Part shown: in pieces, positions 9,556 through 57,935 of the stretch
Layout: the number at the start of each line of letters is the position of its first letter
Numbering within the stretch: the first letter of the stretch is position 1
Origin: Candidatus Pacearchaeota archaeon
GTDB lineage: Archaea; Nanobdellota; Nanobdellia; UBA10117; JABICX01
DNA length: 64,000 bases
Direction of reading: 5' to 3'
Assembly (NCBI GenBank): GCA_017608025.1
Contig: JAFCGM010000005.1
Location: forward strand, 984-64,983
Notes under the pieces: generated by a model
Databases searched by the model: none
The model's input: the letters and a program-made list of their open reading frames with translations, nothing else
What the model was told of the DNA's origin: nothing
Program-made: the position numbers and the translations under genes

Positions 9556-9611
9556 GCACAACATTTAAAAATCCCCAACAAATTCTTTCTCCATTATAAT
9601 TGGTGAAATAT

Positions 9612-11807
9612 ATGGCAGTTGACAAAAAAACTGAAGAAGTATTGAAATTAATGAAGATGCCTGACGTAATCCGGAACATCGGAATTTGCGCTCACATTGA
9701 TCATGGTAAAACAACTCTTTCTGACAATCTTTTGGCTGGAGCTGGAATGATTTCAGAGGAGCTTTCTGGCAAGCAGAGAGCTATGGATTTCCTTGAGGAA
9801 GAGCAGCAAAGAGGAATCACAATCCAGACAGCTAATATTTCAATGGTTCACACAGTTAATGATAAAAAATACCTTATCAATCTATTAGACACACCAGGAC
9901 ATGTTGACTTTGGAGGAGATGTAACCAGAGCTATGAGAGCTGTAGATGGCGCAATTGTAGTTGCTTGCGCAGTTGAAGGAGTAATGCCTCAAACTGAAAC
10001 AGTTCTAAGACAAGCACTAAAAGAAAGAGTAAAACCAGTTCTTTTCATTAACAAAGTTGACAGGTTGATTTCTGAAGTAAAACTTACACCTGAGGAAATG
10101 CAAAAGAAATTTGTTAAAATCATAACAGATGTAAACAAAATAATCACTTCTGTAGCACCGCCAGAATTCAAGGACAAGTGGACTGTGTCTGTAAATGAAG
10201 GAACAGTTGCATTTGGTTCAGCATACCATAACTGGGGTCTGAGTGTAAATATGATGAAGAAAAACAATGTTTCCTTCAAGGATGTTATTGATGCTTATGC
10301 CAATGATAAACGTGAAGAACTTAGAAAGAAAGCAGCCCTACATGAAGCAGTTCTTGACATGGTTGCAAAGCATCTTCCAAGCCCAGTTCAGGCTCAGGAA
10401 TACAGAATTCCGCGTTTGTGGCAGGGAGATCCAGAATCTCCTCTTGGAAAAAAGCTAAGAAGCTGCAACTCATCTGGACCGCTCGTTTTTATAATCACAA
10501 AAATGATGGTTGACCCTCAGGCAGGGGAAATTGCATTTGGCAGAGTTTTCTCAGGAACACTTAAACGAGGAGAGGAAATTTATCTATCCTTGGCAAAACT
10601 TTCAACAAGAATTCAGCAGGTTGCTCTTTCAAAAGGAGCAAAGAGAATTATTGTTGACGAAGTTCCAGCAGGAAATGTAGCTCAGATTGTCGGACTCAAA
10701 GCAGGAAAATCTGGCGAGACTGTTTCCACAGACAAGGATGTACCTCCTTTTGAATCCATCAAGCACCTTTTTGACCCTGTTGTTACAAAGGCAATTGAGG
10801 CAAAGAACCCGCAGGACTTAGGAAAGCTCACTGAAGCCCTCAAGCAGATGGAGAAAGAGGATCCGACAATAAAAGTTACAATTAATGAAGAGACCGGAGA
10901 AAACCTTATTGCAGGGTTAGGAGAACTTCATCTTGAAATCAAGGAGCATATGATACAAAAAGATAAGGGAATTGATATTGTAACCTCAGAACCGATTGTC
11001 GTTTACAGGGAAACAATTGAAAAGCCGTCTGAAATACAAATGGGAAAATCCCCGAACAAGCACAATAAGTTATTTGTTAAGGTTGAGCCAGTCCCAAACG
11101 AAATCCAGCACGCAATAAAAAACGACAAGATTCCTGAAGCAAGAGTAAAGAAAAACAACCAGAAAGAAATTGTTGAAGCTCTTGTTGAGCACGGATTTGA
11201 CAGGAAAGAGGCAAAGTCAGTAAAGGACATATATAAAGGATGTATTTTTGTTGACGGAACTTCTGGAATTGTTCACATTCAGGAAATCATGGAAATGGTG
11301 CTTGACGCATTTGAAGAAGTCATTGACGCAGGACCACTTGCAGCAGAACCTGGAATCAACTTAAAAGTAACACTTGTTGATGCAAAACTCCATGAAGACT
11401 CAATTCACAGAGGTCCAGCTCAAATTATACCTGCAATGAGACAAGCAATTCACAATTGTTTACTTACAGCAGGAGATGTTCTTTTTGAGCCAAAGCAGAC
11501 AATTAGAATTGATGCCCCACTTGACTATCTTGGAGCAATTTCAAAATTAATTCAGGCAAGACGAGGACAGCTTTTGGACACAGAGCAGGACGAGCATTCA
11601 ATGACAATTAAGGCAAAACTTCCAGTAGCTGAAATGATTGGCTTCACATCAAGCCTTCGTTCAGCAACAGAAGGACGCGGAGCATGGTTCCTTGTTGACC
11701 AGTCTTATGAAAAGCTTCCAGCTGATTTGCAAAAGCAAACAGTAATGAGAATTAGAAAAAGAAAGGGAATGAAAGAGGAAATCCCTCAACCTGTCTTCGC
11801 CGAATAA
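9612..11807 (+). CDS. fusA: Translation elongation factor aEF-2
   Basis: AHIDHGKTT, RGITI, DTPGHVDF, NKVD; diphthamide loop HEDSIHRG. Confidence 0.98.
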   Translation: MAVDKKTEEVLKLMKMPDVIRNIGICAHIDHGKTTLSDNLLAGAGMISEELSGKQRAMDFLEEEQQRGITIQTANISMVHTVNDKKYLINLLDTPGHVDFGGDVTRAMRAVDGAIVVACAVEGVMPQTETVLRQALKERVKPVLFINKVDRLISEVKLTPEEMQKKFVKIITDVNKIITSVAPPEFKDKWTVSVNEGTVAFGSAYHNWGLSVNMMKKNNVSFKDVIDAYANDKREELRKKAALHEAVLDMVAKHLPSPVQAQEYRIPRLWQGDPESPLGKKLRSCNSSGPLVFIITKMMVDPQAGEIAFGRVFSGTLKRGEEIYLSLAKLSTRIQQVALSKGAKRIIVDEVPAGNVAQIVGLKAGKSGETVSTDKDVPPFESIKHLFDPVVTKAIEAKNPQDLGKLTEALKQMEKEDPTIKVTINEETGENLIAGLGELHLEIKEHMIQKDKGIDIVTSEPIVVYRETIEKPSEIQMGKSPNKHNKLFVKVEPVPNEIQHAIKNDKIPEARVKKNNQKEIVEALVEHGFDRKEAKSVKDIYKGCIFVDGTSGIVHIQEIMEMVLDAFEEVIDAGPLAAEPGINLKVTLVDAKLHEDSIHRGPAQIIPAMRQAIHNCLLTAGDVLFEPKQTIRIDAPLDYLGAISKLIQARRGQLLDTEQDEHSMTIKAKLPVAEMIGFTSSLRSATEGRGAWFLVDQSYEKLPADLQKQTVMRIRKRKGMKEEIPQPVFAE

Positions 11808-11889
11808 TCTCTTTTTTTTATTTTAGTTTTCTTTTTAGTATGGGTTTTTTTCTAAAAGAAAAAAGCATCAACCTGTTTTTGCAGAGTAA
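11787..11889 (+). repeat. EF-2 tail, hairpin module, then a synonymously recoded copy of the tail
   Basis: 11787-11807 CAA CCT GTC TTC GCC GAA TAA versus 11869-11889 CAA CCT GTT TTT GCA GAG TAA (both QPVFAE*). The copy is preceded by GGTTTTTTTCTAAAAGAAAAAAGC. Confidence 0.8.
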
Positions 11890-11949
11890 TTTTTCCTCAT
11901 TTTTTATTTAGATACTCTTTTATATTCTGATTAATATGTTTAACCAGTA

Positions 11950-13035
11950 ATGGATATGAAGAAAGTTAATATTATCTTGATTTCAACCTTTGCAATTTTA
12001 ATAATTCTTTTTTCTGCACCGCACATAATAGGAAATTTAATAACAAGTACAGGCTCAGAACAGGTGTTAGAGGAAGTTAATGTTATTTTCCAGAACTCAA
12101 CAACCCTTGAAATAATGCCAAATGTTTCTGCAGATGAATACCTCTCTTCAGTAAAAGTTTCTGGAGAATATTCTGGAGAAGGCGAGCTGAAAATTTATCT
12201 TCTTGATAAGAATAACAAGTATATCCTTTACGACAACACAGCAAAAAAGCCATCAGCATTGACTGGATTCTTTGCTTACACTGGCCTTGCAAAAGAAGAC
12301 AAAGAAGAAAAGCAAGACCAGCAGAAAAAGAAACAAGAAGAAAAGCAAGACCAGCAGAAAAAGAAACAAAAAGAAACTGAAGCTGAAGCAGAAGAACCAG
12401 AAACACTAGCAGAACAACCTGAAACAGAGGAAGAGCAAACCGAAGCCGAGCAAGAAGAAGCTGAGGAACAAGAACAAAAAGAATTAGAAAAGCAACCTGA
12501 AACTGAAGAGCAGGAATCTCCAGAAGAGCCAGAACAAACCTCAGAGCCAGAACCAGAAAACCAAACACAGCCAGAAGAGCAATCTCCAGCGCAAGAAACA
12601 AATGAAACAGCAGAAGAGCAGGAAGTAATTCCTAAAAATGAAACACAATCAGAAGCCCCAGAGACAAACCAGACATCTGAAGAAACAGGGTCAGAAAACC
12701 AAACAATTGCAGAGCCAGAACCAGAAAACCAAACAGAAGAAGCACCGCAGGAAACCCAGCAAACAGCAACATCAAGCGCATCATCTTCTAGCTCATCGTA
12801 CTCTCCCGCAGTTGAAATCCCTGAAGAGCCAGAACAAACACAGAAAACCTCTTTATCAAGCCCAACAGTTGAGATTCCAGAAGAGGAGTTTGAAAACAAG
12901 TTTGAGAATGAATGCGGAGAAGCATGCCAGCTCGAGCTTGAGCCAGGAACATACAAAATAGTTATAGTTACAGAGCAGGGCAGAGTAAAAGGAATTCTTT
13001 CAAAAATTATTTTTGAAATAAGAAAAAGAACTTAA
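11950..13035 (+). CDS. Membrane-anchored/exported acidic low-complexity surface protein
   Basis: N-terminal TM/signal, long E/Q/P/T-rich linker with multiple N-x-T sequons, CGEAC near the C-terminus. Confidence 0.75.
   Translation: MDMKKVNIILISTFAILIILFSAPHIIGNLITSTGSEQVLEEVNVIFQNSTTLEIMPNVSADEYLSSVKVSGEYSGEGELKIYLLDKNNKYILYDNTAKKPSALTGFFAYTGLAKEDKEEKQDQQKKKQEEKQDQQKKKQKETEAEAEEPETLAEQPETEEEQTEAEQEEAEEQEQKELEKQPETEEQESPEEPEQTSEPEPENQTQPEEQSPAQETNETAEEQEVIPKNETQSEAPETNQTSEETGSENQTIAEPEPENQTEEAPQETQQTATSSASSSSSSYSPAVEIPEEPEQTQKTSLSSPTVEIPEEEFENKFENECGEACQLELEPGTYKIVIVTEQGRVKGILSKIIFEIRKRT
12302..12367 (+). repeat. 33-bp in-frame tandem repeat (2 copies)
   Basis: AAGAAGAAAAGCAAGACCAGCAGAAAAAGAAAC twice. 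Confidence 0.9.
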
Positions 13036-13104
13036 TTGTTACTGCTAAATAGAAACATTTATAAACAAATTTCTATATTCTAGACTCTATAATAAGAGCT
13101 TAAA

Positions 13105-13581
13105 ATGGAAACACCACATAAATCAGATTTGCTTTGGGCAATTAAGGAAATTCACAAAGCAGAATCTTCTTTTGATTTGGAAGAAGAAAACCGACATTAC
13201 AATTCAGCAAGAACAAGATTAAATAATGCTTTGAGGCATGATACAAATTTCTTGCCAGCCCAAATTCTTTATGAAAGGTCAACTCAGAGCTCCAATTTAA
13301 GAATCAATCAGATTCATAAAATTCTTAGAAATTTCCCAGGCTCAAAAATAAGGAACGCAATTCTTTATTTGGACATTGCAAAAGTATATGCGAAAAAATA
13401 CTGGAAAGAAAATGATGTTAATGAAAAAAGCCCAAACAGATTAAAAGTAATTGAATATGTAAAAAAAGCAACTGACGAAACACCACATAATTCGCAAGTA
13501 ATTGAAGAAGCATTTTATTTCTTTGATACTCTTGGTGCATACAAAGAAGCAAAAGCACTTGAAGAAAAATTATTAAAATGA
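13105..13581 (+). CDS. Hypothetical helical (TPR-like) protein
   Basis: 158-aa ORF with TPR-like spacing of small/aromatic residues. Confidence 0.55.
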   Translation: METPHKSDLLWAIKEIHKAESSFDLEEENRHYNSARTRLNNALRHDTNFLPAQILYERSTQSSNLRINQIHKILRNFPGSKIRNAILYLDIAKVYAKKYWKENDVNEKSPNRLKVIEYVKKATDETPHNSQVIEEAFYFFDTLGAYKEAKALEEKLLK

Positions 13582-13910
13582 TGTCTTTGGAAGAAAAACA
13601 AGCACAATTAAAGCAGGCAAGAAACCTAATCTTAAAAAACACCAGAGAATCACTTGAAAAAGCTCTTGATATTTATGTTCATCTTCTTAATAATAACATG
13701 AAAAGCCCTGTGCTTCATGCAGCAATTGCAAGAATATATTTAAGTTTAGGTGAGCCCTTAATGGCAAACATTTATGCTGGCGAGGCTGTTGCTTTTGATA
13801 GGAGAAACCCTGAAATGTATTATCTTGAAGCACAAACTTTTGATGCTTTAGGAAAATACGACCTGTCTGCAAAATGCAGAAGAATAGCAATGGAATTGAA
13901 AAATGAATAA
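13578..13910 (+). CDS. TPR-repeat protein
   Basis: AAIARIYLSLG...AVAFDRRNPEMYYLEAQTFDALGKY. Confidence 0.7.
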   Translation: MMSLEEKQAQLKQARNLILKNTRESLEKALDIYVHLLNNNMKSPVLHAAIARIYLSLGEPLMANIYAGEAVAFDRRNPEMYYLEAQTFDALGKYDLSAKCRRIAMELKNE

Positions 13911-14364
13911 ACAGAAAAGATTGCTTCTTTTTGATTTGGATGGAAACTTCTCCCCAGTTGAGGACCTCCTCTTTGGTGGATTTCCTAAAGAATATATAAT
14001 GAAATGCGATTCTCTTACAAATCTCAAGAAAATTGCAACAAATAAGAAAATGCAGAAAAACCTCGAAATTCCTGTAGTGATTTATGAACTTGACATTCCT
14101 TATTTTGAACAAAACCCTTTTATATTTAATGAAATAAAATCAAGCAGAAATAAAATCAGAGAAATTTATTCTCCAGAAGAATTCTATGTAACTGACCTTA
14201 AAATAATAGACATATCTAAAATAAAAACTCTTGCAGATATTGGTGCAATTGACTTCCCAGATTCAGGAAATCTCCTTCCGCGCAATTTTGATGCGAACGA
14301 GCACGATTTTTACAAAATTTTTGGAAAAAATCTCTTAAAGACCATTTTCAGCTCAAAAGAGTAA
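13903..14364 (+). CDS. Hypothetical protein
   Basis: 153-aa ORF overlapping the upstream stop. Confidence 0.55.
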   Translation: MNKQKRLLLFDLDGNFSPVEDLLFGGFPKEYIMKCDSLTNLKKIATNKKMQKNLEIPVVIYELDIPYFEQNPFIFNEIKSSRNKIREIYSPEEFYVTDLKIIDISKIKTLADIGAIDFPDSGNLLPRNFDANEHDFYKIFGKNLLKTIFSSKE

Positions 14365-14424
14365 GATTTATAAAGACCTTTTTTTAACTGAATATCACTA
14401 ATATAATACTAAAGAGGGTAAAAA

Positions 14425-15693
14425 ATGGCATCAAAAGAGCACATAAACCTTGTTTTTATCGGTCACGTAGACCATGGTAAAAGTACCACAGTAGGAAGAT
14501 TGCTCTACGACACAGGAGCAATAGACGATCAGACACTAAAAAAGCTTAAAGAGAAAGCGCAAGAGCTTGGAAAAGTCGGTTTCGAGTTTGCTTTCGTTAT
14601 GGACAGAGTAAAAGAAGAGCAAGAGAGGGGAGTTACAATTGATCTTGCTTACAAAAAATTCGAGACTCAGAAGCACGTATTTACAATCATTGATGCTCCT
14701 GGACACAGAGACTTCATCAAGAACATGATTACAGGAACATCCCAGGCAGATGCTGCTGTTCTTGTAGTTGCTGCAAATGATGGAGTTATGGAGCAGACAA
14801 AAGAGCATGCTTTCTTAGCTAAGACACTCGGAGTTCCGCAAATTATAATTGCAGTAAACAAGATGGATATTGTCAATTATGATGAGTCTAAATTCAATGC
14901 TGCAAAAGAGCAAGTTGGAAAGCTTCTTTCAGGAATCGGATACAAAATCGATGAAGTTCCTTTTGTTCCTATTTCAGCTTTGAAAGGAGACAATATAGCT
15001 AAGAAAACAGAGCAAATGTCTTGGTATAAGGGAAAAACCCTTCTTGACACAATTGATGACCTTAAGGCTGGAGAAAAGCCAACAGATCTTCCACTTAGAA
15101 TGCCAATTCAGGATGTATATACAATTACTGGTATTGGAGCAGTTCCAGTTGGAAGAGTTGAAACAGGAAAAATGAAAGTTGGCCAGAAAGTTATTGTAAT
15201 GCCTTCTGGAAAGACAGGAGAACTTAAATCCATTGAAATGCATCACGAGCAGATGCAGGAAGCAACTCCTGGTGACAATGTCGGAATTAACATTCGGGGC
15301 ATTGGAAAAGAAGACTTGAAAAGAGGAGATGTACTTGGCGAAGCTTCAAATCCACCAACAGTAGTTAAGGAGTTCACTGCAAGAATTATTGTATTGAACC
15401 ACCCAACTGTTTTGACTGTTGGATACACACCTGTTTTTCACATAAACACTTCTCAAGTTTCCTGCAAAGTTAAGGAAATCAAGAGAAAGCTTGACCCAAA
15501 AACAGGACAGACTGTTGCAGAGCACCCAGATTTCTTGAAGAACGGAGATGCTGCAGAAGTTGTAATTGAGCCAACAAGGCCAATTGTAATTGAAAAGCAG
15601 TCTGACATTCCGCAGCTTTCCAAATTCGCTATTCGGGATATGGGAAGAACAGTTGCAGCTGGAATGTGCATCGACCTAGTAAAGAAGGCTTAA
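14425..15693 (+). CDS. tuf: Translation elongation factor aEF-1A
   Basis: [40 protein letters not shown]; SD GAGG. Confidence 0.98.
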
Positions 15694-15717: not shown

Positions 15718-15987
15718 ATGATATCTAATTTTTCTGAGAAAGAAGATAAAGAACAGTGTATTGAGATTATTAAGATATATAAGCAGTTTGGATGCCTTAA
15801 TACACCTTTTTATTCTAAAGAATTGAAGATAGAGACTTTGGTTGATAAAGAAAAAAGAGTTGTTAAAGGATTTATAAGTACAATTGAAAATTCTATTGAA
15901 GCATTATTTGTTCATCCTGATTTTGTAAGACAAGGAATTGGTACTATTAAAAATGATTTTCCGCGAGTTAGACAAAGCCAATATTGA
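15718..15987 (+). pseudogene. Truncated GNAT acetyltransferase
   Basis: Similarity ends right after motif A (LFVHPDFVRQGIGT); the ORF then overlaps the next GNAT gene. Confidence 0.6.
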
Positions 15988-16363
15988 TGAAATATTTTCA
16001 TGTATTTCTTTAAGTAATGAAACTCAAGGTCTTTTTCCTTCAAACAGGATCACCCCTAAAGAAATAGAAGCTTTCAGAAAACCAGAAGTGAATACAATCA
16101 TATGTGAAAAAAACAATGAAATACTTGGATACGGAACTCTTTGCGGAACATATATAAGTGACTTGTATGTTTATCCAACAATGCAGAGAAAAGGGATTGG
16201 AACAAAAATCCTTTCAAAACTTGAAGAAATAGCAAAAGAATCTGGCAAAAACCAGATAAAACTGATCGCTGTTCGCGGCTCAGAGACTTTCTATCAAAAG
16301 CAAGGATATGAAATATTTAAAGATTCTTCAGGAGATTCAATCGCTGCTAAATTTTTAGAATAG
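15953..16363 (+). CDS. GNAT family N-acetyltransferase
   Basis: LYVYPTMQRKGIGTKIL...FYQKQGY. Confidence 0.88.
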   Translation: MIFRELDKANIDEIFSCISLSNETQGLFPSNRITPKEIEAFRKPEVNTIICEKNNEILGYGTLCGTYISDLYVYPTMQRKGIGTKILSKLEEIAKESGKNQIKLIAVRGSETFYQKQGYEIFKDSSGDSIAAKFLE

Positions 16364-16483: not shown

Positions 16484-16792
16484 ATGCCAAAAGCGCGAAT
16501 AAAGCTATACAGCACAGAACTTGACAAGCTGAACAATGTTTGCTCAGAAATAACAGACATAGCTAAGCAGACAAAGGTCAAATACTCCGGACCTGTAACT
16601 CTGCCAACAAAAATATTGAAACTGGCAGTAAGAAGATCTCCAGATGGAGAAGGTTCTGAAACATATGAACGCTGGGAAAAAAGAATTCACAAGCGTTTAA
16701 TTGACCTTGAAGCAGATGAACGCGCACTTCATCTTGTTATGAGAGTTTCAATTCCACAAGACGTAAACATTGAAATCCAAGTTATAGAATGA
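16484..16792 (+). CDS. rps10: 30S ribosomal protein uS10
   Basis: SGPVTLPT, RRSPDGEGSETYERWE, IHKRLID. Confidence 0.97.
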   Translation: MPKARIKLYSTELDKLNNVCSEITDIAKQTKVKYSGPVTLPTKILKLAVRRSPDGEGSETYERWEKRIHKRLIDLEADERALHLVMRVSIPQDVNIEIQVIE

Positions 16793-46687: not shown

Positions 46688-48565
46688 ATGAGTATCTTAG
46701 ACAAAATTCTAGAGAAATTACCAAGAGAGACGCAAATATCCAGCACGAGCTATGAAGGCGCAAACATTATTCTCTACACAAAAAGCAGGAAATTTTTTCT
46801 AAATAGCGGAGACATAATCCGGCAGCTTGTTGATGAATTCAAAAAAAGAATTGAGCTTCGTGCAGATGCAGCAATACGAAAGTCAGAAGAGGATTCTGAA
46901 AAAATTCTCAAAAAACTATTTCCAAAAGATGCTGAAGTCACAAATATTGTATTCCTGCCTTCGCAATCCCAAGTAATAGTTGAAGCGAAAAATCCTGGAA
47001 GAGCAATTGGAAAAGATGGCGAGATATTAAAGGAAATCAAGGAAAAAACATCATGGACACCTTTTATCAAAAGAGAGTCAGTTGTTACTTCAAACATAAC
47101 AAATAACATTCGCAAGGTTCTTTATGAGGACAATGCAGAAAGACAGCGTTTCTTAAATAATGTTGGAAAGCGAATTTATGAAATAAAAAAAGCAACTTCT
47201 TCTGAAAAATGGGTCCGACTTTCAGTTCTTGGCGGAGGTCGTCAAGTAGGACGTTCATGCTTCTTGCTGCAGACACCAGAATCAAAGGTTTTGATTGACT
47301 GCGGAATAAATCCTGCAGCATCAAATTCAGGAGAATTTCCATATCTCACCGCACCAGAGTTAAATCTTCAAGACCTTGATGCTGTAATTGTTTCTCACGC
47401 TCATTTGGACCACTCAGGCTTTGTGCCTTACCTTTTCAAATACGGATACAAAGGTCCGGTTTACTGCACAGAACCAACTCGAGACATTTCATCTCTTTCG
47501 CAGCTTGACTATATTCAAGTAAGCCATGCCCAGACAAAAAAAGCCCCGTATTCCAGCACAGACATAAAAGAGGCAGTAAAGCATACAATTGTTTTGGATT
47601 ACAATGAAGTGACAGATATAACTCCTGATGTTCGAATTACGCTTTACAATGCAGGCCACATTCTTGGCTCTTCTCTTGTCCACCTTCATATTGGCGAAGG
47701 TTGGCACAACATTCTCTATACAGGAGACTTCAAGACAAAGGAAACTCAATTGCTTAATCCAGGGCATTCTGAATTTCCTCGCGTTGAAACTTTAATAACA
47801 GAAAGCACCTATGGAAAGCCGGACGACTTAATGGCTCCGCGCAAGGAATCAGAAAACGAGCTTGCAGAGTTTGTAAAGTCAACAATAAAAAGAAAAGGAA
47901 AAGTTATTATTCCAGTACTTGGAGTTGGCCGTGCGCAAGAAGTTATGATAATTCTTGAAGAAATTTTTAGGAAAAGCAAAATAAATGTTCCAATTTACAT
48001 TGACGGAATGGTTTGGGACATGACTGCAATTCACAATGCCTATCCAGAATATCTAAATAATTCTATTCGCGAGAAAATCTTTTACAAAGACAGAAACCCT
48101 TTTCTTGCAGGGAACTTCAAAAGAGTCGGCTCAGCAAAGGAAAGAAAGCAGGTTATTGATGGAGGCTCTTGCGTTATTTTGGCAACATCGGGTATGCTTG
48201 TTGGAGGTCCGTCAGTTGAATATTTGAAAAAATTAGGTTCAGACAAGAAAAACTCCTTGGTTTTTGTTTCCTATCAGGCAGAAGGCTCTTTGGGAAATAA
48301 CATTCAGAGAGGAGATACATCATTTTCAGAAGACGGCGAAACCTATGAAGTTAATCTTGACATTAACACTGTTCCTGGATTATCAGGACATTCTGATAGA
48401 GAAGAGCTGTTAACTTATGTTCGAAAAATGACTCCAAGGCCGAGAAGAATTATCGTAGTTCATGGAGACAACCAGTCATGCCTAAACCTTGCTTCAGCTT
48501 TCCACAAGGAATTTCACATAGAGACTACAGCACCGAGAAATCTGGATGTTCTTCGGTTACGTTAG
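46688..48565 (+). CDS. KH-domain beta-CASP ribonuclease aCPSF1 (termination factor FttA)
   Basis: Two KH domains, HAHLDH, AGHILGS, GRAQE, SGHSD, VHGD; next to psmB as is usual in archaea. Confidence 0.95.
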   Translation: MSILDKILEKLPRETQISSTSYEGANIILYTKSRKFFLNSGDIIRQLVDEFKKRIELRADAAIRKSEEDSEKILKKLFPKDAEVTNIVFLPSQSQVIVEAKNPGRAIGKDGEILKEIKEKTSWTPFIKRESVVTSNITNNIRKVLYEDNAERQRFLNNVGKRIYEIKKATSSEKWVRLSVLGGGRQVGRSCFLLQTPESKVLIDCGINPAASNSGEFPYLTAPELNLQDLDAVIVSHAHLDHSGFVPYLFKYGYKGPVYCTEPTRDISSLSQLDYIQVSHAQTKKAPYSSTDIKEAVKHTIVLDYNEVTDITPDVRITLYNAGHILGSSLVHLHIGEGWHNILYTGDFKTKETQLLNPGHSEFPRVETLITESTYGKPDDLMAPRKESENELAEFVKSTIKRKGKVIIPVLGVGRAQEVMIILEEIFRKSKINVPIYIDGMVWDMTAIHNAYPEYLNNSIREKIFYKDRNPFLAGNFKRVGSAKERKQVIDGGSCVILATSGMLVGGPSVEYLKKLGSDKKNSLVFVSYQAEGSLGNNIQRGDTSFSEDGETYEVNLDINTVPGLSGHSDREELLTYVRKMTPRPRRIIVVHGDNQSCLNLASAFHKEFHIETTAPRNLDVLRLR

Positions 48566-48649
48566 TTTATTATTTTCCGCCGCCGCTTTTTTGAAAAGGG
48601 GCGTGAGGCCACTGCTCCAAGAAATCTGGATGTGTTGAGGTTGAGATGA
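48527..48649 (+). repeat. aCPSF1 tail, hairpin module, then a synonymously recoded copy of the tail
   Basis: 48527-48565 and 48611-48649 both encode TAPRNLDVLRLR*; the copy is preceded by CGCCGCTTTT-TTG-AAAAGGGGCG. Confidence 0.9.
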
Positions 48650-54410: not shown

Positions 54411-55688
54411 ATGAAAACAACCTTTATTCGAGACATTTTGAAAAAATCCAAGGCAGGGAAAACAGTTGAAGTCTGCGGATGGGTTTACAGAAAACGGGAA
54501 ATGAAAGACAAGATATTTCTTGTAATTAGGGATTCAACAGATATTATGCAGGTAATTGTTACAGACAAGTCAGATGCATGGAAATCTGCACAGAAAGTTA
54601 CAATAGAGTCTTCAGTAATAATTTCTGGAACTTTGAAGCAAGACTTTAGAGCACCCACTGGCTATGAACTGAAAGCAGAAAAACTGGAAATAGTAGATCT
54701 TGCAGAAAGATTCCCAATTTCAAAAGATCTTTCAACAGAATTTTTAATGGATGTCCGCCATCTTGCTTTAAGAGGAATTAAGCAGGCAGCAATTATCAAG
54801 CTTAGGTCCCAAATGTTTATGGCATTTCATGAGTATTTTCGAAAAAACAAGTTCATTGAAGCAGAAGCCCCTTCATTCATGTCTCAAGGTTCAGAAGGGG
54901 GCTCAGAAGTTTTTCAGGTAAAATATTTTGGAAAAAAAGCATTCCTAACTCAGTCATGGCAGTTTTATGCAGAGAACATGATTCATGCTTTTGAAAATGT
55001 TTATGCTCTTGCTCCTTCTTTTCGCGCAGAAAAATCCTCAACAAACCGCCACTTAACAGAATACTGGCACCTTGAAGTTGAGTCTGCCTGGGCAAACCTT
55101 AACGACATAATCAACCTTACAGAAGGATGCATATCTGCTGTGATTGACAAACTGCTAAGTGAAAATTCACGAGAGCTGGAGATTGTTGGAGTTGACAAAA
55201 AATGGCTTAATTCACTTAAGCCACCATACAAGAAAATAACATATTCAAAAGCAGTAAAAGAATTGCAGAAAAAAGGATTCAAAATCAAAGAAGGGCAAGA
55301 TTTTGGAGCTCCGCATGAAAAGGAATTGGCAAAAAACGGCCCGATTTTTGTAACCCATTATCCAATGTCAATTCTGAAGTTTTACCATGGAGAAGACCCA
55401 AAAAATCCAGGCTATGGAACAAACTTTAATCTTCTTTTTCCTGAAGTCGGAGAAACAGTTGACGGCTCCCAAAGAGAGCCAGAACTGGAAAAAATAAAAC
55501 AGCGCCTCAAAAAAGCGAAAATAAACCTTGGAAAATCTGACTGGTATCTGGATTCACGGAGATATGGTTCAGTGCCACATGCAGGCTTCGGCCTTGGAAC
55601 AGAGCGCCTTTTGCAGGCTCTTTTGAAACTCGACCACATCCGAGACATTTTGCCATTCCCTAGGTTTATGAACCGAATAAGACCATAA
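54411..55688 (+). CDS. asnS: Asparagine--tRNA ligase
   Basis: OB fold, LTQSWQ, FRAEKSSTNRHLTEYW, RRYGSVPHAGFGLG. Confidence 0.9.
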   Translation: MKTTFIRDILKKSKAGKTVEVCGWVYRKREMKDKIFLVIRDSTDIMQVIVTDKSDAWKSAQKVTIESSVIISGTLKQDFRAPTGYELKAEKLEIVDLAERFPISKDLSTEFLMDVRHLALRGIKQAAIIKLRSQMFMAFHEYFRKNKFIEAEAPSFMSQGSEGGSEVFQVKYFGKKAFLTQSWQFYAENMIHAFENVYALAPSFRAEKSSTNRHLTEYWHLEVESAWANLNDIINLTEGCISAVIDKLLSENSRELEIVGVDKKWLNSLKPPYKKITYSKAVKELQKKGFKIKEGQDFGAPHEKELAKNGPIFVTHYPMSILKFYHGEDPKNPGYGTNFNLLFPEVGETVDGSQREPELEKIKQRLKKAKINLGKSDWYLDSRRYGSVPHAGFGLGTERLLQALLKLDHIRDILPFPRFMNRIRP

Positions 55689-55990
55689 AATATTGTTCTA
55701 ATCTCTTTGAGATTGTTCTTTTGGCAACTTACCTTTTCTTTTGAAGAAAAGGCAGGGGTTTTATGAACCGAATAAGACCATAAAATATTGTTCTAATCTC
55801 TTTGAGATTGTTCTTTTGGCAACTTACAGAAACTTTTTAGAAAAAAGTTTCATCAAAAAATAAATTTGTTTCTTTTTGAAACTTACTTGTTTTTTCTTAG
55901 AAGGCGTAGCCGCCTTAGGCTTTGCCTTAGTGGAGGTTCTTTTTTAAAGAAAGTCCTTTGAAAGAAAAGGGAGTGAGAAAGTGCAGAGTA
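55665..55990. repeat. asnS tail duplication (68 bp) plus hairpin modules up to tRNA-Ser
   Basis: 55665-55732 equals 55760-55827, separated by CTTTTCTT-TTG-AAGAAAAG-GCAGGGGT; further modules are shared with the tRNA-Leu locus. Confidence 0.9.
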
Positions 55991-57139: not shown

Positions 57140-57745
57140 ATGGCTAAAATAAAATTAATCATCTTTGACATTTGGAATACGCTTATGTACACACATGAAA
57201 ATAAATTAGATGTTATGCTTGAGCTTTTAGGTATTGATGAAGCAACATTCAGAGATGGAATAAAGCGAATGTGTCTTTCTAAAATGTCTATTGAAGATCT
57301 TTTCTCAGAATTTACAACAGATAAAAAGAAACTTAAAACTGCTGTTGATTTATGGATGAATGATAAAGTTACTATTTACAAGGATGTTATTCCTACGCTG
57401 AATGTATTATATGGGAAAATTAAGATGGCAATTCTTTCTAACTCTTCAACATACATAAGAGAATTTTTGAAGGAAAAAAGGATTTCTGCGTATTTTGATA
57501 AGATTTATTTGTCTGCAGAATACGGACTTCTTAAGCCAGATCCAAGGCTTTTTAATATAATTCTTAAAGATTTTAATTTAAAACCAGAAGAAGTAGCAAT
57601 GGTCGGCGACAAGGAAAGCAAAGACATCGCCCCAGCCAAGCAAAAGGGAATTCTCGGAATTTTGATTGACAGAAAAAACTCAAAAGAGAAAATCCTTGCT
57701 GACTACAAAATTCAGAATTTGAGAGAAATAGAAAAGATAATTTAG
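57140..57745 (+). CDS. HAD-superfamily hydrolase
   Basis: FDIWNTL, LSNS, KPDPRLF, MVGD...DI. Confidence 0.9.
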   Translation: MAKIKLIIFDIWNTLMYTHENKLDVMLELLGIDEATFRDGIKRMCLSKMSIEDLFSEFTTDKKKLKTAVDLWMNDKVTIYKDVIPTLNVLYGKIKMAILSNSSTYIREFLKEKRISAYFDKIYLSAEYGLLKPDPRLFNIILKDFNLKPEEVAMVGDKESKDIAPAKQKGILGILIDRKNSKEKILADYKIQNLREIEKII

Positions 57746-57935
57746 TTTTCTTTTGGCAACTTGGGTTTTCTTTTTCTAAAAGAAAAGCCAGCTGACTACA
57801 AAATTCAGAATTTGAGAGAAATAGAAAAGATAATTTAGTTTTCTTTGGGTTACCTTACCACATTCTTTTCTGTAGAGCAGTTTCTTTCGGGTTGTAAGAA
57901 GCTATATTTTTCCGTGAATGCTTTTTCTAAAATAG
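57698..57935. repeat. HAD tail duplication (56 bp) with hairpin modules
   Basis: 57698-57753 equals 57791-57846, separated by TGGCAACTTG-GGTTTTCTTT-TTCT-AAAAGAAAAGCC-A; TTTTCCGTGAATGCTTTTTCTAAAA module near 57907. Confidence 0.9.

Follow-up and report, generated by a model that had tools for sequence, protein, structure and literature searches.

The end of the elongation factor 2 gene is doubled and synonymously recoded around a hairpin mini-element in a Candidatus Pacearchaeota archaeon

The end of the fus gene, which encodes the archaeal elongation factor 2 (EF-2), is present twice in a 64,000-nt stretch of DNA from a Candidatus Pacearchaeota archaeon (GCA_017608025.1, contig JAFCGM010000005.1, positions 984 to 64,983; called the window below). 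The last six amino acids of the protein, QPVFAE, and the stop codon TAA are encoded at 11787-11807 and again, TAA included, at 11869-11889. The two 21-mers have four mismatches (C/T, C/T, C/A and A/G), every one of which lies at a third codon position and is synonymous. Each copy, together with a T-rich trailer, makes up one arm of a direct repeat of 37-41 nt (gene end, stop and trailer), and the two arms, designated X1 (translated) and X2 (downstream), bracket a hairpin mini-element. Gene-tail copies beside hairpin elements were found to form a class in this genome, and what is new is the mostly synonymous, stop-to-stop divergence of these copies, the baseline of true orthologues with which it was compared, and the recurrence of the fus case in three families. 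For the fus pair, the chances were judged to be about even that the element duplicates the gene end and that the hybrid arms arose when diverged relatives recombined at a site that carries the element.

The genome under study (G000), which its relatives mark as that of a small archaeon of DPANN type, is a bin of 700 kb in 34 contigs with 33-34% G+C and 91.5% completeness, and the window lies on its contig C21. All genomes compared are metagenome bins, among them a sister species of the same genus (G001) and a genome of another family of the same order (G019). The fus open reading frame (ORF) was called from a TTG at 9600, but translation probably begins with the ATG at 9612, and the protein of the sister species, which is 84.5% identical, begins at the equivalent ATG. 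The X2 copy of the tail is outside any ORF because an in-frame stop at 11854-11856 precedes it, and the 61 nt between both tail copies are free of ORFs. The element between the arms contains an inverted repeat (11827-11838 and 11852-11863) and belongs to a subfamily with three copies genome-wide, of which the fus copy has a shorter left arm than the other two; its edges were set from a by-eye alignment of the three copies. The T-rich trailers of X1 and X2 match loosely only, and the ends of the arms are approximate. When the 300 nt on the 3' side of fus were shuffled with preservation of dinucleotides, six amino acids plus stop recurred in 0 of 20,000 shuffles in any frame, and a chance origin of the second QPVFAE-stop is excluded. 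The doubled tail with its four silent changes, its position right after a hairpin of a repeated family and the four genes separating fus from tuf had been described in the initial annotation, which had also named a shuffle test of the match; all of this was confirmed, with fus, tuf and rps10 identified by Pfam.

Tail copies of this kind are not confined to fus, and the genome contains dozens of duplications in which an element accompanies a doubled gene end. The last six amino acids plus stop were repeated within 300 nt after 14 of the 639 ORFs of at least 120 aa in G000, against an expectation of 0.05 obtained by pairing each gene tail with the downstream DNA of another gene. At a threshold of at least 18 matches in 24 nt within 300 nt, tail copies followed 33 of 638 ORFs (1.4 expected). 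In the sister species, matches of at least 21 in 24 nt were found after 10 of 498 ORFs (0 in the control), and in G019 copies followed 10 of 598 ORFs (0.6 expected). Farther away, at 300-12,000 nt downstream, no excess was present in G000 (4 copies vs 11 in a permuted control), and the corresponding rows of G001 were discarded as artefacts of masked N runs. In the G000 cases that were aligned, the tail copy was seen by eye to adjoin the 3' edge of the hairpin. The hairpins consist of a T-rich lead, a stem that varies and a loop around TTTT..AAAA, and a census of G000 listed 524 hairpins, of which 152 are of the TTTT..AAAA kind (about 150 genome-wide). In some pairs, tail, stop, trailer and hairpin form a unit that is repeated exactly in tandem, and certain loci hold three or four such units. 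The duplicated gene ends in G000 are about 12 to 48 nt long, some of them longer, and occur at many different genes; in G000 and G001 together, 17 of 56 copies are identical to the working tail. Four genes have tail copies in both species beside different elements, so the same gene ends have been hit repeatedly. In a limited search of the literature on hairpin repeat elements and target site duplication in DPANN archaea, which is no proof of their being unpublished, none of the papers listed mentioned DPANN, and neither the element family nor recoded tail pairs were found described.

The divergence of the copies from their working tails was scored on sets collected by nucleotide identity alone, blind to codon position. 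In G000 and G001 the differences number 36, 28 and 73 at codon positions 1, 2 and 3, with 52 synonymous and 64 replacement codon differences (synonymous share 0.448); some false matches of low complexity, and some mismatches at the edges of repeats, remain in this set, and either kind works against the effect. The G019 copies have 5, 4 and 27 differences at the three positions and 25 synonymous vs 8 replacement codons (share 0.758). In simulations, the mean synonymous share was 0.19-0.21 if the copy decayed freely and 0.31-0.34 if the working copy underwent synonymous drift as well, and the observed share was reached in 0 of 2000 simulations for G000 and G001 and in 0 of 1000 for G019. Stops that had changed remained stops in 8 of 12 cases (G000 and G001) and in 2 of 2 (G019). 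As a yardstick, true orthologous tails of G000 and G001 were passed through the same filter and gave 421 synonymous vs 238 replacement differences (64%), from which the G019 copies are not different (p 0.19). For the clearly delimited pairs of G000, a hand count made by eye and not computed gave 46 synonymous vs 20 replacement differences. Replacements between copies are conservative, and at two loci the downstream copy has the residue of the sister species, which the working copy lacks. Judged by these sequences, many downstream copies look like gene ends once used in a related lineage and not like scars decaying in place.

These numbers bear directly on a plain alternative for fus, in which the element made a target duplication of about 40 nt after the gene, the four differences arose later within the lineage and nothing foreign was involved. 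Exact duplications of like architecture are common (the identical copies counted above), the fus element looks old, with its short left arm and small indels between the T-rich parts of the arms, and the site was chosen for peptide identity; these points speak for it. However, a synonymous share of about 0.31 is expected with one constrained arm, which puts the chance of four out of four near 0.01, and the translated arm would have had to turn three common codons into rare C-ending ones despite an AT-rich genome. As an explanation of the whole class, decay in place fails in the simulations, and for fus we regard it as improbable, though with more to be said for it than for any of the other alternatives considered below.

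A second recoded pair lies in the same window, at the end of the FttA/aCPSF1 gene, which encodes a termination factor. Here 13 codons and the stop are repeated 84 nt downstream, past a hairpin element, and a by-eye count gave eight synonymous codon differences, one replacement and a change of stop from TAG to TGA. The FttA end of G019 seems to be recoded too, as judged by its tail peptide. Further tail copies were noted at other genes. Two genes of the window have their ends exactly duplicated beside hairpin elements: one for a class II aminoacyl-tRNA synthetase (55665-55783; 24 nt, with the post-stop trailer duplicated as well) and one for a HAD hydrolase (57698-57838; 48 nt). In the sister species, the end of rps10 (S10; contig C5, near 16892) has a copy 53 nt downstream from which it differs by two synonymous changes, and a locus on contig C16 (near 6236) has three tail copies, the farthest of which carries the residue K of the working tail in G000.

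Within the order, a recoded copy of the fus tail beside a dispersed element was found at 3 of 34 distinct fus loci, namely in G000, G008 and G019, each of them a bin from a different family. The G008 repeat covers 11 codons, with seven synonymous differences and no replacement, and encloses an element of about 100 nt; in G019, 10 codons are repeated with six synonymous differences and one replacement, or nine and two when 16 codons are compared by eye. The elements between these fus tails are dispersed, with 17 further matches in the genome of G008 and 11 in that of G019. In G008 the tail occurs a third time, in a shorter copy 691 nt downstream, and an ORF with a DUF2683 domain and a weakly ParE-like ORF are located between tail copies 2 and 3 (L042, contig C13, 2900-3645); a coiled-coil-like ORF of 1083 aa comes next, before tuf. 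This toxin-antitoxin-like pair between displaced tails is the arrangement expected for cargo integrated at a gene end, and since the gene pair is bracketed by displaced fus tails, the fus end has been a site of gene gain somewhere in the order. A match of 20 in 24 nt downstream of fus in G016 was not counted; it is inside another ORF and lacks a stop. The fus gene of the sister species has no tail copy downstream. At its locus (L041, contig C5, 5176-5375) a hairpin element in reverse orientation abuts the fus stop and recurs about 170 nt further on, with two other hairpin elements between.

Codon usage was compared between the two arms to see which of them matches the rest of the gene. The commonest codons in fus are GTT for Val (36/63), TTT for Phe (12/19) and GCA for Ala (35/55), and it is these that X2 contains, whereas the translated arm X1 has GTC (4/63), TTC (7/19) and GCC (4/55), which are rare in fus. 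The codons of the fus tail in the sister species end in A or T. Together these facts weakly suggest that the translated arm is an import and the downstream arm the displaced native tail. The third-position divergence of fus from G001 has no step toward the 3' end, so any imported tract must be shorter than about 40 codons. A degenerate pattern of the six amino acids plus stop, which is too loose to judge whether a donor exists, was searched in metagenome and genome contigs; the listed matches were unrelated and mostly bacterial, with no fus relative and neither 21-mer among them. A peptide pattern made from the last 99 residues of EF-2 had 55 matching stretches in viral contigs, none of which was confirmed.

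Recombination with a relative would account for the fus pair as follows. The element would insert, or be copied, at gene ends and duplicate the end, so that the gene stays whole; this duplication step is shown by the many exact duplications in the class. At fus, as at some of the other conserved genes, the arms differ in the way orthologous gene ends differ between species, and one of them should thus once have been the working fus end in a closely related lineage. Two routes could bring the arms together: a break at an empty or occupied site might be repaired from the relative's copy in a homing-like manner, with conversion of one flank, or a crossover might occur inside an element common to both relatives. 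The translated arm would then have come with the element, and the downstream arm would be the displaced native tail, like icdC beside the prophage e14. The four ORFs between fus and tuf, which are outside the repeat pair, would not be cargo of the event. Whether the hairpin mini-elements in general are non-autonomous homing elements or break-repair hot spots that move between lineages and leave hybrid resident/donor gene ends is a more speculative matter, and we hold this to be possible but on balance doubtful.

Several points weigh against an exchange with a diverged relative. Taken by itself, the fus case is thin, with four differences at a site that was ascertained by its identical peptide. 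The direction of import is read from three codons, and no donor was found, the QPVFAE tail being absent at all 33 other distinct fus loci (33/33). In G000 and G001 the synonymous share is below that of true orthologues (52:64 vs 421:238, p 0.0002), which allows in-place decay of some copies. As for machinery, the genome has 0 matches to Y1_Tnp (PF01797), Cas1 (PF01867), the TnpB-type domain (PF07282) and RVT_1; tyrosine recombinases are represented by just two matches, of which one is probably the chromosome resolvase. The comparison is also made throughout on metagenome bins, in which shared repeats are places where assemblers can switch paths. An assembly artefact could arise in this way if the arms were identical in the real genomes and the bin joined two co-occurring relatives within a shared element. 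Yet the same pattern occurs in three bins of three families and at several sites on one contig, the fus element is only 45 nt long, and an artefact would still require the element and the duplication at the same site in both relatives; we therefore consider such an origin very improbable.

It could also be asked whether both arms are in use, with the element and one arm removed or skipped in RNA, for instance through the archaeal splicing endonuclease. That would directly account for a coding-like conservation of the unused arm. On the other hand, the region folds no better than its shuffles (z -0.44), loose bulge-helix-bulge-like pairings number 24 at the exact repeat period vs 2-30 at other offsets, and the sister species lacks a copy of the fus tail, which leaves nothing conserved at the locus within the genus. 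The synonymous share, moreover, is the same as in ordinary orthologues and no stricter. Use of both arms is thus the least credible of the explanations considered, and we give it hardly any weight, preferring recombination with a relative.

The features discussed so far and those of the fus-tuf interval are listed in Table 1. The genes fus, tuf and rps10 follow one another on one strand, as in archaeal str-type clusters, and have the same order in the sister species, where fus is followed by several hairpin elements, an ORF of 147 aa, tuf and rps10. No Pfam family scored above cut-off for the four ORFs between fus and tuf, and ORF1 and ORF4 have no Pfam, PHROG or PADLOC family. ORF1 starts 60 nt past the X2 tail copy. 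Its residues 4-150 weakly resemble other proteins of the same genome and of 11 of 40 relatives, none of which lies on the fus contig of its own genome according to a comparison of coordinates. ORF2 matches the fus-tuf interval of the sister species (contig C5, 14470-14865) with 32% identity over 136 aa (tblastn, E 5e-17), and the block upstream of ORF2, beginning 5 nt past the ORF1 stop, is similar there by eye; ORF2 thus has a positional orthologue and predates the separation of the two species. For ORF1, ORF3 and ORF4, G001 has no counterpart at this locus. Across 38 other genomes of the order, ORF4 had 0 matches and ORF3 one weak TPR-type match within a large protein. The stop of ORF2 overlaps the start of ORF3 (13578-13581) and the end of ORF3 overlaps the start of ORF4 (13903-13910), which suggests that the three ORFs form one translationally coupled unit.

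Table 1. Positions of the features in the window
Feature	Position	Strand	Description
fus (archaeal EF-2)	9600..11807	+	Pfam GTP_EFTU, EFG_IV, EFG_C, EFG_III
Repeat arm X1	11787..11823	+	Translated last 6 codons and stop (11787-11807), then 16 nt of T-rich 3' sequence
Hairpin mini-element	11824..11868	+	45 nt; edges from by-eye alignment of 3 subfamily copies
Repeat arm X2	11869..11909	+	Untranslated 6 codons and stop (11869-11889), then T-rich stretch
ORF1	11950..13035	+	361 aa; hydrophobic N-terminus, long Glu/Gln/Thr-rich middle
ORF2	13105..13581	+	158 aa; positional orthologue of the 147-aa G001 ORF
ORF3	13578..13910	+	110 aa; weakly TPR-like (TPR_8 and TPR_17 below Pfam cut-offs)
ORF4	13903..14364	+	153 aa; orphan
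tuf (aEF-1 alpha)	14425..15693	+	Pfam; 85.5% identical to G001
rps10	16484..16792		Pfam
FttA/aCPSF1 gene	46688-48565	+	Pfam Beta-Casp, KH_TffA, RMMBL
FttA/aCPSF1 gene end and its copy	48524..48649	+	Second recoded pair, beside a hairpin element; copy ends at 48649

The initial annotation had taken the downstream tail for that of a foreign allele which marks the entry point of the four genes, and had linked the repeat system to the gain of genes within a core operon. Origin from a diverged allele stands as the best reading of the synonymous-only differences, though codon usage suggests the reverse direction, with the translated arm as the import. The idea of an entry point was not supported. 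In its explicit form, X2 would be the end of a foreign fus allele that arrived with ORF1, and perhaps with ORF2-4, through an illegitimate left join at the hairpin and homology near tuf on the right. The absence of ORF1, ORF3 and ORF4 at the G001 locus and of ORF4 from the 38 other genomes would agree with this, as would the start of ORF1 so shortly after the copy, the accessory genes that follow the recoded fus copy in G008 and G019 also, the gene pair between two displaced tails in G008 and the variable fus-tuf gap in the order. Against it, ORF2 has its orthologue in the sister species, and no further fus-tail copy occurs between 11890 and 16500, so the four ORFs are not bracketed as cargo would be; the G008 cargo sits between tails, unlike the arrangement here. 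X2 carries the native codon style, and the relative that the initial annotation proposed to look for, with GTT TTT GCA GAG as its real fus end and an ORF1 homologue behind it, was not encountered at the 33 other fus loci or among the contigs with ORF1 relatives. Among the 12 other diverged tail loci, 8 are followed by the gene that also comes next in G001 (the remaining four are fus, two at contig ends and one without a match), and tail copies are accordingly not generally tied to gene gain; the G008 gene pair speaks for the proposed link. Arrival of the tail together with ORF1 is in our view unlikely, a little more so than decay in place.

Gene turnover at the fus-tuf junction is common in the order and mostly occurs without a tail copy: the gap measures from 57 to 1133 nt, and several genomes have no tuf within 1.5 kb. 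Our conclusion is that the tail copy goes with the mini-element rather than with the four genes. Some other features of the region were recorded. The middle of ORF1 (12270-12420) is of low complexity, rich in Glu, Gln, Lys and Thr, with an internal near-repeat, and a search of 11000-15000 against Rfam gave one sub-threshold snoRNA-like match inside ORF1 (12172-12234), which is probably noise. Between tuf and rps10 (15718-16363) there are two overlapping ORFs with GNAT acetyltransferase matches, one weak (89 aa) and one clear (141 aa), which may be a split or duplicated gene. In the sister species tuf adjoins rps10, and an ORF of 155 aa is present on the opposite strand upstream of fus.

If the proposed mechanism is true, recoded tails would record frequent recombination between species at the ends of core genes (EF-2, FttA and S10), and the elements would now and then let in cassettes, as with the toxin-antitoxin-like pair at the fus end of G008. 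Provided that one arm is foreign, these scars would offer a cheap view of gene flow in uncultured reduced archaea, and a means of dating it, from sequence only. Tiny non-coding repeats would then join prophages and casposons in landing safely at the ends of essential genes. In annotation, a repeated tail after a hairpin should not be taken for a pseudogene of a second gene copy, and the view that a core operon took in four genes here in a single event is corrected.

The use of gene ends by inserting elements has known examples, of which Tn7, inserting at glmS, is one. The closest comparison is with the prophage e14 (and phage 21) at icd. The prophage is described as lying between icd, which reaches into it, and icdC, a C-terminal pseudogene, and its excision as one that alters several synonymous sites and changes two Asp to Glu (PMC13626634). 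In that description, as at fus, the insert is in the 3' end of an essential gene, the end is present twice, the gene is whole and the differences are mainly synonymous. At fus the end is doubled as a direct repeat around the insert, the gene is intact and 4 of 4 differences are synonymous. Unlike the present element, e14 is a prophage of 15 kb with its own integrase and one fixed site, whereas the inserts here are 45-60 nt long, carry no gene, belong to a family found at many gene ends and copy whatever end they entered.

Casposons share the target. Thaumarchaeal casposons are described as targeting the aEF-2 gene in its 3'-distal part and leaving the gene unaltered (PMC4046053), and it is the same region that is used here. 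They differ from the fus insert in that Cas1 (PF01867), for which control genomes were positive, has 0 matches in this 91.5% complete genome, and no polymerase is present. The sizes differ as well, 45 nt here vs kilobases, with a repeat of 37-41 nt. The target duplications of casposons are about 14-15 bp.

In form, the fus element resembles the repetitive extragenic palindromic (REP) elements and bacterial interspersed mosaic elements (BIMEs) with their REP-associated tyrosine transposases (RAYTs), and the MITEs (miniature transposable elements with inverted repeats), in being short, dispersed, hairpin-forming, non-coding and located at gene ends. A REP/RAYT or IS200/IS605 assignment is opposed by the 0 matches to PF01797 and PF07282 in the genome, and a MITE assignment by the duplications, which are long and variable here vs short and of fixed length, or absent. 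We know of no REP/BIME or MITE element with coding-like divergence of its flanks. Diversity-generating retroelements are likewise a poor fit, with 0 matches to RVT_1 and differences that are not confined to the adenines of one copy. Hybrid resident/donor flanks around a selfish insert would be explained by homing as seen in group I introns and inteins, in which flanks are co-converted; the fus locus has no endonuclease, intron or intein, and the targets vary from gene to gene, so that the likeness is an analogy of mechanism and not of membership. The fus case has in common with the closest known ones that the end of an essential gene is used and that the tail is doubled and allele-like, and it differs in its insert, a 45-nt non-coding hairpin that lacks a recombinase of its own and whose family is found at many gene ends.

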